A stretch of DNA of 64,000 bases from Escherichia coli (GCF_048403405.1 NZ_CP183129.1), one strand, 5' to 3'; shown: positions 1 to 15,000, numbered from the stretch's first letter. Numbers: made by a program.

Positions 1-3000
1 TCCCATCATGTCATTGAATTTAGACCATGAGCGATCAACCCTTGCCATATTAATGGCTTCGTCTGCTCCAAGATTTTTGGCTACGGCTTTTTTCATATCC
101 GCCGTATATGCCTTGTAGATAATATCGCTGGCTTTCTGGAGCGTATCTTTATCAACAGTGTCAGATGACGCAATAAATCGCTTTCGAAGATCGGTTCTGT
201 TTTCCCTCGCCAGGCGCAGGTCATTTGGTCCGCTGGTGATATCGTCTTTAAATTGCTGCAAGACTTTTACCGCGGCTCTATCCTGAGATTTGCCCGGGCG
301 GCTTAACACGGCAATCTGATTGTCGATAGCTTTTACCGTGTTTGAGAGATCGACAGGGGTATCCCCCATAGCGTCAATTATGCGGTTATATCGCTTTCCT
401 GCTGCCTCAATGAATTTTTGTTGCCCTTTAGTCGCAGATTCATAAAGCTGTTTATCAGAAATGCCACCCAGACCATCGCTAAATGTTCTGACTAAATTTT
501 CTCGTGCTTGTTGTTGATTCAGCCGATTCTTACCGGTTCCAAAAAAAGGAACTCTTTCGCCTAATGTCTGAGCCTGACTCTGCATAAAGGTTTTATCTTT
601 CAGCATGTCACTGGTCATTAACGGCAGATTTCTTTCCGATGCAAAGTCGACAGCAGCCTTTGCTTCAGGCGACATATCACCACGAACAGCCCTCGAAACC
701 GCACTCGCTGTATTTTCCAGCCCCTTACCAATACCACCAATGCCAGCAGAAATTACCGTTTGTAACGGATCAATATCTTCTCCACCAGCAAGGCTGGTGG
801 CTCCCTGTAGTGCTAAATCTGTAGCTGCTGATTTTCCTATGGCACCAAGCACCGTTCCAGCCCTGCCCGCTGGTGTAAACGCCAACGCATTAGCAAGAAA
901 CGAAGTCAGGTCTTGCGGTGATAAACCCGGCTTGTTCAGGGCATAATCACCTGATGGCAGAGAAACGATAGTATTCCCCTTCTCATCCTGCCTTAATGTC
1001 GCCCCCATTCCCTGAAGAATCTTTTCCTGAGACGCGTCAGAGCCGAAAAGTTGGGACCATCCAGCCTTTAGGGCATCCATGCTTAGTGAGTTCAATTCTG
1101 GGGCAGAGGCGACATTTTGCAGTCTCTCCATCTCTGAAGTCATTCGGCTTTCGCCTGTTATAGCATCGCGCATCGCAGCCCCAAGACTGGCTCCCTGTTC
1201 TGCTGAACGCTCAAGCCCCTCTCTTTGCTGAGTAGCTAACTTTGCATACCCTGACGCAAGAGAATTATCAGATGATGTATGTTGAATATTTTGAGTTGCT
1301 GATTGGGATCGGTCTATTTCATTCGTTGATGGTAGTGGATAGGCAGCATAAAAAGCCTGCTTAGCCTGCTCTACACTTTCTCCGGCTTGCGGGGCAACGA
1401 CTTCATTGAAGTATTGCTCCTGAGCCTGCGCTTTTTGTTCTGGTGCTAACGCCTGATACTGTGGAGAGGCGATAACATCTTTCCATGCTTTAGCCATTAA
1501 TCACCCCATAGTGAAGAAAAGTTACTGCTGGCTGCTGGCTGTGATACCTGCTCAGATTGCGGCAATGTCTGCGACGAAGAAGACGTTCCTCTGTCAACTG
1601 CTGAAATAACCCGCAAAGCATCATAAGCTCGACCAGAAGCAGCTTTCAGCGAATTGAACTGGTTTTCCATCTTCCGGCGCTTGGTATCAATGGTTTTTGT
1701 GGAGTCGCCAGGCTGAGGGAAATACATTTGATAATATTTTGACATTTCAGCAGGTACGATAGCTGCCCCTGTTTCCTGACGGAGTATTGCCATTATTGCG
1801 TCATTAGCATTAACAACGTATTGCTGCTCTGTTGGGCTGAGCGTTAAGTTAGCCAGCGTCCCATTACCCAAAGCATTATTAATGATCGCCACTCGCTGTG
1901 GGCTAAGCTGGTCTTTCAGTGTATCTATTGAATCAAGAGCATCCCTAACCCTGTATGCAAATCCAGCAGCTTTTTTAGCCCCTTCTGGCGACTTTTCCAT
2001 GATCTTTTGGGCTGTTGGCAAAGCTATTGGACGAAACCCATCTCCAGATATTGGCTGGTTTAGTTTTCCCTGCTCTTCACTTCCGTCTGTGTAGTATTTT
2101 GTGACAGTGCCATCATCGTTTTCTCTAACACTCATTAATTTTTTGGCGTTTGTATTAATTCCAGCCGCTGCCGCAAATGCCGCCGCCCCCTCTGGATCCG
2201 CCTTTAACATTTGAGCGTACTGATTGTAATTCTGCATTGCTGCTGTTGGTGCATATGCTGACGTTAACGCATTTGCTCGGCTAATATCCTGCCCTCTCGC
2301 CTGAAGTGCTTCGCCAGCCTGATTGCTGCGGATTGTCTCTGCCAGCCTGCCTCGCTCAATATCCCGACCTTCCATTTGATCTTTGATATTGAAATACTTC
2401 TCATGACCGAGAGAAAACAGTGCCATACTACCAGCAAGCCGCTGGAATCCCTGTGGATCATTAACATGCATTTCGGCAACAGACTCAGGAGAAATTCCCA
2501 AGCGACGCATTTCATCTTCGTTATCTGCTATGAATTTTCCAAATGCCCCAGTTCCGAGCGAAGATGCGATTTGAGCACTAGTCGCAAGATGACCAATAGA
2601 ATTTCTCTGGTCGTCATCAATAAAGCCCATCCCTTTCTGAACGCTTTCAAATTCTTCTGGATACTCAGAAATAAGACTGCGCATTTTGTTTCTGTCTCCA
2701 GACTCAAAAGCCCCGGCATATGCTTTCTGAAACTCTGATTTACGCTGTTGTTGACGTGCCTGCTGATTAATCTCAGCAACGCCTCTTAGCCCCTGTAGCG
2801 CCATTAAACCTACGTTTGGCTGCTGCTGATACTGCACAGGCTGAGGAACGGAAGAACGAGGAGCATTATCATTTTGCGGTGCCATGCTAGGCAGCCCGCC
2901 AAGTTGCCATGTCGTCATTAGAATCCAAGCCCCCCAACAAGACCAATAAGCCCACCACCAATAGCCCCGGCGACATTACCTATACCCGGAACAACGGAAC

Positions 3001-12000: not shown

Positions 12001-15000
12001 AATATCTGAATTAGCCGCCTGTAATGGGCGGTTTTTCTTTTCCATCAGGCCACCTTCCCGCGGCGTTCTGCCAGCCAGTTGTGAATCTCAACCGCATCAA
12101 ACGCAGTTATTTTTTCTCCCAGCTTTACCGGACGTGGTAGTGAACCGTTTCTTACTTTACGGTCGATGGTGGATACACTAACGCCCAGCAATTCAGCCAG
12201 GCGGAAGCGTCTGATATAGCCTTTTGTAGGAATAGTGTCGGTGTTCATGCTTCCCGTAACCTCTTAGCGATAGTTGTTGCTTCGTTACGGGAGGAAGTAT
12301 CTGTACATATATGAACAATAAAAAGGCACAGTAATGATACTGTGCCTGAATAGTTAGCTACTCTACCCCTTACCGTTGGCGGCAGCACGTAAGTGTCTCA
12401 AAATCACATCTTCATTTGTGATTGCTAACGGTGGAATTTCGTCTTTATGAGCCACTATGCAATCCCGCCACTTCTCAGGGCTTATTTCTTTCTTTTTGCC
12501 ACGGCATTCATCAGGATACTTTGACAAAAGATATATTGCAGATTTGAAAAGTTTTTCCCTGTTTTCAGCATGTCTCTCGGCATTATGGTTGCTATTTTTT
12601 ATTTCAGGTATTAGTTCCTGTTCTACCGCCATTTCGTATCGTTTTTTGCTCTTAGCTGCGTCAAAACTTCCATTAACCTTTGCGTCATGAAGGTATTCTA
12701 AATCAGCCTTTGTTATATAAATGTTTTTATCTGACAGGCTACTCAGGTGAATTTGGGAACTTTGCATTTTGAATTTATATAGATCACAATCAAATGTTGC
12801 TTCAAGTCGCACATATGGTTCTCCACATTCTTGTGAATGATAATGTCGTGTTGTTCTACCGCGTACACGCAACAATCCACATGCAATTGATTTTCTTACA
12901 ATAAAAGAGTTTTTGCCAATTTGTTCAAAAACATTTTTATTGTCGCTGTCTTCAACTGTCAGTGGTTTATGTGCATAAAATAGCTCATAAGCACCGCTTT
13001 CAGATGCTGGGATATAAACTTCGTTGCTTGCGCTGGTAATAAGAAAAGGAAATGTAAACCTTACTTCTTCTGGGTACATAAGTAATAAATCAGTTATAAA
13101 ATTAGCATCTTTTTTGAAGTGGATGGTGGCATCAGATTCAATGAAATCAAGAAAGTCAGCATAGACATAAAAGTCTATATGTAGTCTATCTTTCCAATGC
13201 CATATATCATCAATTTCACAATTTAATAATTTTGATGCTCGCTCTATCGTGCAGTAGTCCAAAGGTGGAATACCTGATTCCTGCCATAAATTTCTATGCA
13301 CCACTGTTGTTTCATGAGAGTCGTTCATTGCGTCACCTTTTACGCTGCGCCTTATTTTGTGATTGAGCCAGGCGGTAAGGCTTCCCGCTTTTCGCCCCGT
13401 CGAGCTAGGCTCAATCTATTCAGTTAGTTCGCCCTTCTGAGAGGCGTTACGTTGTAGTCTTTTCCGCTTTCCAGTGCCACCAGCAGATCAGCCCACTGTG
13501 CCAGTGCTGCTTTACGCTCATCAAAATACTGATGGCGGTTATAAATCCCCTCTACGCCCTTAATGCGATGATTGAGGCATCGTTCCGCCACGACAGGATC
13601 AACACCCAACGCTGCTAAATGAGTACGTGCGGTGCGTCGGAAGTCGTGAATCGTGAAATTAGGCACATCCGGCATTTCGGCGCGAACCTTAGCCAGTGCT
13701 ACGGGCAAAGTGCTTTCCTGAATATGTGGGATCATTCTGTTTTGCATCTTCCTGGCTGGAAGCACCCATGCGCTATTACATGAAAAGGTGTGTAGCTCTC
13801 TCAACCATTCAACGGCTGGGGAAGGTAGAGGTATATCAATAGGGTCTCCGTTTTTGCTGCGTTCTTCCGGCAAATGCCATACCGCACCATCTAAATCAAA
13901 CTCTTCCCATCGTGCGGCGCATAACTCCATCTTACGAACGCATAGTGCCAGCAATAGCTTAAATGTCAGTTCGTTCTGGCGGCTGAATCCTTTTGCGGTG
14001 CGCATAGCCTCGAATAGCCTGATAAGCTCATCGCGAGTTAGCCAACGGTCGCGGGAAACCTCTTTACCACCAGCATCAGATACTTCAAACGCTGAACAAG
14101 GGTTTATCTCCAGAGCGTGGCGTTTTATCCCGTAGTCAAAGATACGGCGTGTCCAGCGTAATACATCTGTTGCTATCGTTGGTGCTCCTCGGTCAACGAT
14201 ACCTTTCAACATGTCGTCAATGTGGCGTGGCTTAACGTCCTCTACCTTCATATGCCCAATGCAGGGGTTAATATCCTTATCAATTCTCCGGCGAAGGATA
14301 TCGGGATGTTTCCATCTCGGAAGTATCTGGCGCTCGAAGTATTCGGAGGCCAGATCTGAAACACGCATGGCGTTTTTCTCAGCCTCCATTTTTGCCAGTG
14401 CTTCAGCTTTTCGTTCCTGTTTCTCTGCTGCTACGTCATAGCCAAGAGCAACTCTGGCTGACAGCTCTTTTGCTGTTTCTCTGGCTTTTGATAGTGACAG
14501 TTCGGAGTAAGAGCCTATAACCATAGCCCGCTGCTTTCCTGCGAGCTTATAGCGGAATCGCCAGAACGGGGCTGTGTAGTTTTTGGGGTAGCAAATATAA
14601 AGGCCGTTGCCGTCTGCCTTGCCATCAAATCTGTCTCCCGCCTTTATCCATGCGCGGATCTGCATATCTGTGAGTTTTGGCATTGCGAATACCTGAATAT
14701 CGAATATGGGTGTGTACATAAAGCAATGTACATGAAAGTCATTATGTACACCTCTATGTACACGCATATTGTGCGCTTTATTGCGTCGTTATGATAGCTC
14801 ATGATAACAAAAAAGCCCGACATTTCGCGGGCTTTGTGGTTTTTTGCTGCTTGGTGATTTTTACTGATAGCTTATTCGATATTCTGGATCTGCTCGCGCA
14901 TCTGCTCAATCAACACTTTCAGCTCGATGGCAGAATTCGTCACTTCGGCATTGATAGATTTCGACGCAAGAGTGTTCGACTCGCGGTTGAACTCCTGCAT

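Follow-up and report, generated by a model that had tools for sequence, protein, structure and literature searches.

Positions 1 to 14871 of the window (the whole stretch of Escherichia coli DNA analyzed, 64,000 nt; GCF_048403405.1, NZ_CP183129.1) very probably represent most of a phage satellite, namely the right-hand 14.9 kb of an EcCIMP1-like Gram-negative PICI inserted at the yicC stop codon. The four zones of the published PICI layout (integration, Bro, replication, and late) were all present, and all genes annotated between the window start and yicC were on the minus strand, as the sequence-only reading had reported. The integrase and AlpA genes were paired at one end and co-oriented with the remaining island genes; Bro-network proteins and the C4 and isrK RNAs were located between alpA and the replication genes; the element's own primase was followed directly 3′ by an iteron origin; virion genes were limited to homologs of gp14, gp7, gp20, and gp16, with no lysis genes in 18.1-20.1 kb; and the specific attachment site had a flanking identity block. 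Counting against the PICI reading, no Rpp-type or terS-type (small terminase) packaging gene was recognized in the element. The antirepressor, Ash-family gene, and DNA primase are conserved in EcCIMP1-like elements, and integrase, AlpA, and PerC are variable (PMC11773190); all three conserved genes were found here.

The far end lay outside the window, as had been proposed with a size of at least 14.7 kb. The element measured approximately 18.1 kb in the closest genome (NZ_OZ040716.1; 99.7% identity to the window over 16.5 kb) and 20.1 kb in E. coli 042, and the closest genome placed the left end approximately 3.3 kb past the window start. When filled and empty sites were compared, both ends were located and showed doubled arm-type motifs and a short block of identity; the proposed leftward extension for a boundary and repeats therefore succeeded in relatives. 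All element ORFs within the window were intact and had the same lengths as their EcCIMP1 and 042 counterparts. The right end had the following features.

14711-14763, plus strand: candidate arm-type integrase sites, including a doubled TATGTACAC-N3-TATGTACAC, a motif present at both element ends
14810-14846, unstranded: element-borne hairpin in place of the native yicC terminator, read from the sequence
14872-14892, unstranded: attR core TTATTCGATATTCTGGATCTG, comprising the yicC stop codon and last codons (attB/attL/attR comparison)

An integrative element at yicC had been claimed for positions 1 to 14846. The insertion stood, and the right boundary moved to 14871/14872, at the yicC stop codon. 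The hairpin at approximately 14810-14846, previously taken for the yicC terminator, differed from the K-12 and Nissle terminator and belongs to the element. Homology of the sampled element-free genomes stopped at query positions 371-373 (window 14870-14872), and in Nissle the empty site ran on unbroken across the junction. The genes yicC, dinD, and yicG had no intervening genes in K-12, Nissle, O157:H7, and one ETEC strain, so that alignment to an uninterrupted site defined the attachment site and bore out the statement that dinD directly follows yicC in K-12, where the element sits here. The presence of these genes in K-12-like genomes, or the lack of any boundary or repeat, had been named as grounds for rejecting the insertion; both were looked for, and neither was observed. 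The same element, 98.6-99.1% identical at the nucleotide level over shared blocks, was flanked by yicC and an intact dinD in E. coli 042, with the crossover block TTATTC at attL and attR.

Insertion was demonstrated with 042 instead of the closest genome. In the latter a simple-insertion model failed: dinD was absent, approximately 80 bp of unrelated sequence and ISEc23 (50 bp from attL) lay beyond attL, and the attL core differed from attR, with an 8-bp identity block still common to both. ISEc23 was outside the element and had an intact 8-bp target duplication. With an identity block of only 6-8 bp, the core escaped a repeat search for att sites, which did recover the doubled arm-type motif; comparison of filled with empty sites then revealed the core. 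The doubled TATGTACAC motif was also found close to attL, and the motif was confined to the two element ends within the 43.5-kb locus of the closest genome; one unrelated copy occurred in the window, at 32878. ARAGORN found no tRNA anywhere in the 64-kb window, which agrees with the reported lack of a tRNA at the boundary. That lack is not anomalous, as had been thought, because attB consists of the yicC stop codon and last codon and PICIs in yicC are already published: yicC has been noted as an integration site of reference PICIs, with drifting identity blocks (PMC6092414, PMC10111431). The yicC site was integrase-occupied in 448 of 5426 genomes (approximately 8% of complete E. coli genomes), and the primase-ejection module was present in approximately 3% of complete E. 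coli genomes.

The integration zone contained a P4-type integrase and AlpA, both of which had been named from the sequence.

13424-14683, minus strand: yicC-specific tyrosine integrase of P4-type architecture, 419 aa (Pfam Arm-DNA-bind_3, Phage_int_M, and Phage_integrase)
13349-13415, minus strand: int-alpA RNA motif (Rfam RF02996, 60.6 bits; gathering score 35.8)
12363-13328, minus strand: variable cargo gene located between int and alpA, 321 aa, low GC (0.39-0.41), gene content here differing among relatives
12045-12248, minus strand: AlpA-family regulator/excisionase, 67 aa (PHROG 66, Pfam Phage_AlpA)
11614-12045, minus strand: 143-aa protein coupled to alpA, 98% identical to EcCIMP1

The integrase was 93% and 86% identical (amino acids) to integrases of other yicC elements and only 29% identical to that of EcCIMP1. 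AlpA was 100% identical to the 042 copy and had no match in EcCIMP1 (tblastn, E 1e-5); this allele travels with the yicC-type integrase. Relatives held other genes at the position of the 321-aa cargo gene, which had no Pfam, PHROG, or NCBIfam match and only a weak PADLOC match (PDC-S31, E 0.002). The 143-aa protein had no family match in Pfam, PHROG, NCBIfam, or PADLOC.

The Bro zone confirmed the antirepressor-like gene through two family matches.

10768-11601, minus strand: AntA/AntB antirepressor-family (Bro network) protein, 277 aa (PHROG 5817, E 2.9e-37; Pfam AntA)
10596-10775, minus strand: DUF4222 protein (annotation, Pfam, PHROG 285)
9532-10599, minus strand: Ash/eta-like Bro-network ORF, 355 aa, containing the immunity RNA region (Pfam Phage_ASH, PHROG 6928)
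10141-10218, minus strand: isrK-type RNA, seqA-like CI target (Rfam RF01394, 67.1 bits; gathering score 50)
9991-10078, minus strand: C4 antisense RNA, P4 CI-type immunity RNA (Rfam RF01695, full length, 79.5 bits; gathering score 45; E 1.4e-14)

Both RNA matches were inside the Ash/eta-like ORF, and the isrK RNA was read as a seqA-like target of CI after PMC10111431. These Rfam motifs were absent from the earlier account.

In the replication zone, the coupled small ORFs, the large primase-helicase, and the iteron origin were each recovered as described from the sequence.

7556-9539, minus strand: six translationally coupled small ORFs (123, 113, 200, 73, 87, and 64 aa) with start/stop overlaps
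4813-7569, minus strand: primase-helicase, 918 aa, Zn_Ribbon_Prim/Toprim_3/DUF927 (Pfam; PHROG 1139, E 5e-178)
4677-4787, unstranded: predicted replication origin just downstream of the primase stop, with three copies of GTTGGTTCA, an AT-rich spacer, and three copies of TGAACCAAC

The primase was 99.1% identical (amino acids) to that of EcCIMP1; the six small ORFs were 97-100% identical to EcCIMP1 and matched solely PHROGs of unknown function. The iteron 9-mer had a single further copy in the rest of the window. Origins of PICIs are described as immediately 3′ of the primase gene (PMC6092414, PMC10111431), matching the placement here. Two inverted iteron clusters bracketed the late zone.

The late zone (positions 1-4228), which had gone unrecognized in the sequence-only reading, was a P22-type ejection-protein module.

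4262-4347, minus strand: intrinsic terminator (4332-4347, terminator scan), then a TATAAT box (4262-4267, read by eye) upstream of orf53
4067-4228, minus strand: 53-aa ORF (orf53) heading the late zone, 100% identical in EcCIMP1
3589-4050, minus strand: P22 gp14-like protein (DUF2824), 153 aa (PHROG 651, E 2.2e-65; Pfam DUF2824)
2918-3595, minus strand: P22 gp7-like ejection protein, 225 aa (PHROG 598 DNA ejection, E 1.2e-69; Pfam P22_gp7)
1497-2918, minus strand: P22 gp20-like ejection protein, 473 aa (PHROG 917, E 1.6e-111; Pfam Inj_translocase)
1-1497, minus strand: P22 gp16-like ejection protein, N-terminal 499 of 701 codons, the rest beyond the left edge

The full gp16 gene (25398-27503 in the locus of the closest genome) matched PHROG 770 DNA transfer protein (E 2e-161), and Pfam Phage_P22_gp16 was matched in identical loci. 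Over residues 98-701 its product shared 94.9% identity with the gp16 of a complete P22-like prophage located at argW, and gp16 with the gene downstream showed 93% nucleotide identity to a complete P22-like prophage. The gp20-like protein matched the N-terminal half of P22 gp20 at 38% identity, the gp7-like protein shared 99.6% identity with its EcCIMP1 counterpart and 57% with that of Kapi1, and the gp14-like protein was 83% identical (amino acids) to Kapi1_055. At the DNA level the match to Kapi1 was limited to window 3461-4050. Judged by these sequence relationships, the ejection genes are taken to be late genes captured from P22-like phages. Beyond gp16, a convergent membrane-protein gene occupied the position of P22 sieA; its identification as SieA was rejected (similarity to P22 SieA, E 0.77), position and topology alone being analogous. 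The three genes left of gp16 had no significant match in Pfam, PHROG, NCBIfam, or PADLOC, and perC was at the far end. The P22-like genes lie between primase and perC, inside the element ends.

orf53 had no Pfam, PHROG, or NCBIfam match. In the assembly collection, 22141 blocks contained the exact protein, and the order primase, orf53, ejection genes was found in all 10 distinct orf53 contexts among those listed. The TATAAT box may be a separate late-zone promoter; the promoter scan returned no full sigma-70 consensus upstream of orf53. The late-zone layout recurred with two integrases, two primases, and three sets of ejection genes. Between satellite copies, dN/dS was 0.14-0.30 for the ejection genes and 0.17 for the primase, and the purifying selection on the ejection genes could partly predate their capture. 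Among species-representative genomes, exact-peptide patterns of gp20 retrieved just one near-identical locus, in an Escherichia sp. We found nothing specific in the literature on satellites encoding ejection or injection proteins.

Experiments have shown that Kapi1, a P22-like phage, induces and transduces EcCIMP1; the island circularizes solely with Kapi1 present, needs alpA and int, and its transduction is specific (PMC11773190). By analogy with these experiments and with general PICI biology, an induced or infecting P22-like temperate phage (Lederbergvirus) would switch on alpA; AlpA and integrase would excise the island through attL × attR recombination; the primase-helicase would replicate the excised circle from the iteron origin; and P22-like particles built by the helper would package island DNA and carry it into new cells. 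There the integrase would insert the island at the TTATTC block ending yicC, leaving the yicC reading frame intact. Helper-dependent induction, replication, packaging, and transfer were demonstrated for EcCIMP1 with Kapi1 and are expected by analogy for the yicC element; the inducing signal or helper could differ, because integrase and AlpA differ. Two published observations count against transfer as a PICI: EcCIMP1 transduction is low (approximately 5e3 per ml), and a Kapi1-like prophage was present in only 2 of 21 EcCIMP1 carriers (PMC11773190).

The ejection proteins are probably made late and built into island-carrying particles. We tentatively suggest, as a possibility less probable than its negation, that the satellite's own ejection proteins in helper-made particles decide how and into which cells satellite DNA enters, and that the late zone is a swappable cassette between two inverted copies of the iteron origin. 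The gp20- and gp16-type proteins were only approximately 25% identical to those of Kapi1, the proven helper of EcCIMP1. If this suggestion is true, they could, for example, bypass SieA-type exclusion in lysogens or underlie the unexplained superinfection immunity conferred by EcCIMP1 plus Kapi1. The ejection genes that the satellite retains are intact, selected, and very unlike those of its presumed P22-like helper.

A P22 gene order (14-7-20-16, then the convergent gene at the sieA position) and a gp16 93% identical to that of a complete prophage are also what a decayed P22-like prophage would show, that is, a deletion derivative keeping genes 14-16 and fused to an unrelated island. This origin is highly improbable, since coat, portal, terminase, tailspike, lysis, cI/cro, and P22-type integrase genes were missing, no phage record shared more than 23% of the backbone, the P22-like genes were internal to the element, the layout recurred with differing integrases, primases, and ejection alleles, and EcCIMP1, at 97% identity, moves as a single unit. 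There is equally little to recommend a strict P4-like satellite that uses Sid, Psu, and Delta to exploit a P2-like myovirus. The P4-type integrase, AlpA, C4/isrK CI-type RNA immunity, and large primase-helicase followed by an origin would fit it, but the sid, psu, delta, and epsilon families had no PHROG match among the element ORFs in the window, perC, and full-length gp16; the captured late genes are podoviral, not P2; and the characterized relative EcCIMP1 uses a P22-like helper. Because sid, psu, and delta were not matched, the element is classed as a PICI; the earlier label "P4/PICI-like" holds for a PICI-type satellite and fails for a strict P4-like one.

Somewhat less improbable, and still unlikely, is a fixed, immobile PICI remnant kept for cargo such as perC, superinfection immunity, or defense genes. 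The closest genome has lost dinD, carries ISEc23 near attL, and has an attL core unlike attR; one relative locus (L023) lacked a called gp16; and EcCIMP1 benefits fitness without high transfer. Against immobility, the window ORFs are intact and unchanged in length relative to EcCIMP1 and 042, the 8-bp attL/attR block persists, and ISEc23, with its target duplication, lies outside the element. An EcCIMP1-like PICI is the preferred reading. The element is common in E. coli and easily taken for an incomplete prophage.

Among known systems, P22-like phages (Lederbergvirus: P22, Kapi1, and CUS-3-like prophages) have genes 14, 7, 20, and 16 in the same order, then a convergent membrane-protein gene, whereas their regulation, replication, and integration modules are unrelated to those of the element, in which no further P22-like gene turned up and no coat, portal, terminase, tailspike, lysis, or cI/cro gene was annotated or found. 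Satellite P4 shares the integrase architecture, an AlpA/Vis-type regulator, CI RNA immunity within an eta-like ORF, and an origin after the primase-helicase; its helper is P2-like, whereas that of the element is probably P22-like. Gram-negative PICIs (Fillol-Salom et al. 2018, PMC6092414; Tommasini, Mageeney and Williams 2023, PMC10111431) have the same zone order, an origin 3′ of the primase, and lengths (about 10-20 kb) into which the 18-20 kb of the element fit; their late zones also hold captured prophage late genes, most commonly capsid genes there and podovirus ejection proteins here.

The closest system was EcCIMP1 (E. coli MP1 PICI; Pick, Stadel and Raivio, ISME J 2025, PMC11773190), with 97.4% nucleotide identity over window 2758-12055 (9.3 kb). 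Core proteins were 96-100% identical (Ant, 96.4%; orf53, orf73, and orf87, 100%), in the shared order 143-aa gene, AntA, DUF4222, Ash, small ORFs, primase, origin, orf53, gp14, and gp7, and in both elements the far end carried a PerC-family gene and the iterons formed two inverted clusters. They differed in attachment site (tRNA-Thr next to proA in EcCIMP1, the yicC stop codon here), in the replaced integrase (29%) and AlpA, in gp20 (48% identical, N-terminus only), in gp16 (701 aa without an SLT domain here, 906 aa with one in EcCIMP1), in the extra 321-aa gene between int and alpA, and in the cargo beside perC. The PICI kind, the yicC site, and the EcCIMP1 core were known already, and the yicC element is a further EcCIMP1 relative; it adds that the backbone of EcCIMP1 is also in circulation with another integrase/AlpA cassette, one that targets the yicC stop codon, and therefore that satellite core and chromosomal site reassort.

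Window 1-14871 contained genes on the minus strand only, up to yicC; beyond yicC, rph and pyrE lay on the plus strand, so that the window runs in the reverse orientation to K-12. This region is most of an EcCIMP1-like phage-inducible chromosomal island (PICI) whose anatomy, ends and relationship to EcCIMP1, the published PICI of E. coli MP1, are demonstrated here. The features named in the sequence-only reading (minus-strand genes, P4-type integrase domains, AlpA, antirepressor, overlapping small ORFs, primase and iterons) were all confirmed.

Features of the element from yicC leftwards (positions in the window where available)
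14872-15735, minus strand: yicC
Tyrosine integrase (int), 419 aa, with Arm-DNA-bind_3, Phage_int_M and Phage_integrase domains
int-alpA RNA motif (Rfam, 60.6 bits)
12363-13328: gene of 321 aa between int and alpA, low GC (0.39-0.41)
AlpA, 67 aa, coupled to a 143-aa gene
AntA/AntB antirepressor-family protein, then a DUF4222 protein
9532-10599, minus strand: Phage_ASH ORF, 355 aa
Six small overlapping ORFs between the ash ORF and the primase
Primase, 918 aa, Zn-ribbon/TOPRIM/DUF927
4332-4347: intrinsic terminator, after the origin

Of 5426 complete E. coli genomes, 5424 gave a match to a 701-bp probe over the yicC junction, and in 448 of these an integrase adjoined yicC. In all element-free genomes sampled, homology ended at probe positions 371-373 (window 14870-14872), where the stop codon of yicC begins. 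The gene order yicC-dinD-yicG was found in K-12, Nissle, O157:H7 and an ETEC strain. In E. coli 042 the same element, with 98.6-99.1% nucleotide identity over shared blocks, separated yicC from an intact dinD, and the empty-site sequence of Nissle was continuous over both 042 junctions; the proposed integrative element at yicC was thus established from a filled and an empty site. The left flank was viewed in the closest complete genome, NZ_OZ040716.1 (99.7% over window 1-16500; its locus, L001, converts as window position = L001 position minus 26006). Extension leftwards located attL and gave an element length of 18.1 kb in L001 and 20.1 kb in 042.

Attachment sites (filled site of 042, empty site of Nissle)
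attB: ...ACGAG TTATTC AATGTTCTGGATCTG...
attL: ...ACGAG TTATTC TTGGATCTGTTTG...
attR: ...GATAGC TTATTC GATATTCTGGATCTG...

Comparison of the three sites places the crossover in the block TTATTC, which is the yicC stop codon plus the last codon, and the yicC reading frame was untouched by the insertion. The doubled motif TATGTACAC-N3-TATGTACAC occurred near both element ends and nowhere else in the 43.5-kb closest-genome locus; these motifs are likely arm-type integrase sites. Among relatives at yicC the identity block was slightly shifted, which agrees with the att drift already remarked in the literature for yicC PICIs. ARAGORN found no tRNA gene in the entire 64 kb, so the absence of a tRNA at the boundary stood, but not its reading as an anomaly: the attachment site is the yicC stop codon, where PICIs had already been noted. 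The hairpin at approximately 14810-14846, previously taken for the yicC terminator, is instead borne by the element.

In L001 (20154-22686 and 20120-22746), dinD was absent and approximately 80 bp beyond attL matched neither the element nor K-12. Within this stretch lay ISEc23 (IS66 family), whose 8-bp target duplication, ACTATATG, was intact. A tandem element once present here, together with a deletion, may have left these features as a scar. The dinD gene (L003 2955-3779 in Nissle; L023 18859-19683 in the yicC-type relative CP165396.1) adjoins the PICI attachment site and encodes a Bro-N domain (Pfam) belonging to the same protein network as the antirepressor zone of the satellites; dinD could itself be the remnant of an old element.

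The 321-aa gene had no match in family searches, its sole hit being a weak one to PADLOC PDC-S31 (E 0.002). Its position was occupied in relatives by a different 281-aa gene, by a DUF6387 gene or by nothing, and the int-alpA gap looks like a cargo hotspot. Full-length Rfam matches to C4 antisense RNA (79.5 bits) and isrK (67.1 bits) lay inside the 355-aa ash ORF, a predicted reading frame that is possibly translated only in part. In the EcCIMP1 annotation, a truncated ash pseudogene and an Icd-like gene cover the same stretch.

The iteron origin (4677-4787) directly followed the primase stop and consisted of three copies of GTTGGTTCA, an AT-rich spacer and three inverted copies; the 9-mer iteron had a single further copy in the remainder of the window. 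A second cluster was observed upstream of perC (L001 23547-23667, approximately 2.4 kb beyond the left edge of the window), with three copies of GTTGGTTCA, an AT-rich spacer and three copies of TGAACCAAC, inverted relative to the primase-side origin. The two clusters enclosed the whole late zone, and both were kept in EcCIMP1, 042, BKQ37E and EH01. All TOPRIM-DUF927 members examined had such a pair around the late zone; an element with a DUF5906 primase had the perC-side cluster only. This second, inverted cluster, bracketing the late zone with the origin, seems to be undescribed so far.

The late zone had gone unrecognized in the sequence-only reading. Past the terminator came a TATAAT box, read by eye from the sequence, then a 53-aa ORF (orf53) and homologues of P22 genes 14 (DUF2824), 7, 20 and 16 (PHROG E-values 1e-65 to 1e-161; Pfam families P22_gp7, Inj_translocase and Phage_P22_gp16), the gp16 gene being cut by the left window edge. 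In P22, the ejection proteins are housed inside the head and, once released, convey the DNA across the envelope. The P22 gene order is 7-20-16 with convergent sieA next, and a complete P22-like prophage (L016) had the full 14-7-20-16 order. At the place of sieA, just past gp16, L001 encoded a convergent 129-aa protein (24990-25379, window -1016 to -627) with approximately four predicted membrane spans, 85% identical to its counterpart in a complete P22-like prophage. Similarity of this protein to P22 SieA was not significant; it is a candidate exclusion protein. In L023 (12732-14837) no gene was called at the expected place of gp16, which suggests that the ejection module is decaying in some copies.

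This P22-like gene order could be read as the remnant of a P22-like prophage. That explanation was rejected: the element has no further P22 gene, its P22-like genes are located within the island ends, and the same layout recurs with different partner modules. A strict P4-like satellite, for which the integrase domains might speak, fails because the ORFs searched gave no match to sid, psu or delta. For the PICI-type element, by analogy with EcCIMP1 and PICI biology, a helper phage would switch on alpA expression, Int and AlpA would excise the island, replication would proceed from the iteron origin, island DNA would be packaged in P22-like particles, and reintegration would occur at the yicC stop codon. 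It is possible that the present copy is no longer mobile. No packaging gene was recognized in the element, and no helper prophage lay within the window.

The remainder of the window (approximately 15800-64000) was ordinary chromosome from rph to mtlA. The rph product (238 aa, WP_001247093.1) was as in other natural isolates, K-12 rph being annotated as truncated; the waa LPS-core cluster included rfaS, waaB, waaO, rfaJ, rfaY, waaZ and waaU. The corresponding region of the closest genome also held a 4.3-kb YadA-like autotransporter gene.

Residues 98-701 of gp16 plus the convergent downstream gene showed 93% nucleotide identity to the argW-located, complete P22-like prophage of an APEC O1:K1 strain. 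Amino acid identity to Kapi1, the P22-like helper of EcCIMP1, was 83% for gp14, 57% for gp7 and 34% for gp20 (N-terminus only). Among deposited phages, none was close to the ejection module over its full length and none carried the element backbone. Between satellite copies, dN/dS was 0.14-0.30 for the ejection genes vs. 0.17 for the primase, indicating that the ejection genes are kept intact; part of this purifying-selection signal may be older than their capture. In EcCIMP1 (L013 5981-10017), gp14 was 83% identical to that of Kapi1 (L014 29086-32582), whereas gp20 and gp16 were only 24-26% identical to those of this proven helper and are therefore not simple spare copies of helper genes. Heterologous ejection-protein sets seem to be undescribed so far, and our preferred guess is that the satellite proteins are built into transducing particles.

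Modules reassort within this PICI family. In all 10 distinct contexts listed, the exact 53-aa protein occurred in the order int-AlpA-AntA-DUF4222-Ash-primase-orf53-gp14-gp7-gp20-gp16-...-PerC, with either integrase and either gp20/gp16 set. Elements at tRNA-Thr had the same core, combined in L010 with the gp20/gp16 type of the window but neither gp14 nor gp7, in L011 with the EcCIMP1 set, and in L012 with a different primase. In other yicC elements, with integrases 86-93% identical, the primases were different and ejection genes were lacking. Of 5426 genomes, 180 contained 80% or more of the late zone and its primase junction, and 90 contained 80% or more of the full 16.5-kb probe. From the ejection genes to the far island end, cargo varied by strain: a Doc/Fic toxin plus partner gene (042, L015 22268-23751), an Abi-family protein (EH01, L011 8419-9381), GmrSD plus a HEPN protein (L028 17917-19709) and a Peptidase_M78 pair (cq9, L024 16158-17021).

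EcCIMP1 is a 19,963-bp island in tRNA-Thr that circularizes only when Kapi1 is present, requires its own alpA and int, and is specifically transduced by Kapi1 (PMC11773190). A packaging role was guessed by its authors for the "DNA transfer" and DUF2824 genes past its primase (PMC11773190). It was 97.4% identical to window 2758-12055, with core proteins 96-100% identical, three of them exactly. The present element differed in its integrase (29% amino acid identity) and AlpA, a pair that goes with the yicC site, in its additional gene of 321 aa in the int-alpA gap, and in its gp20 and gp16 alleles. This comparison supports the element as an integrase/att and ejection-allele variant within a PICI family that has been described; its integration site had previously been noted for PICIs.
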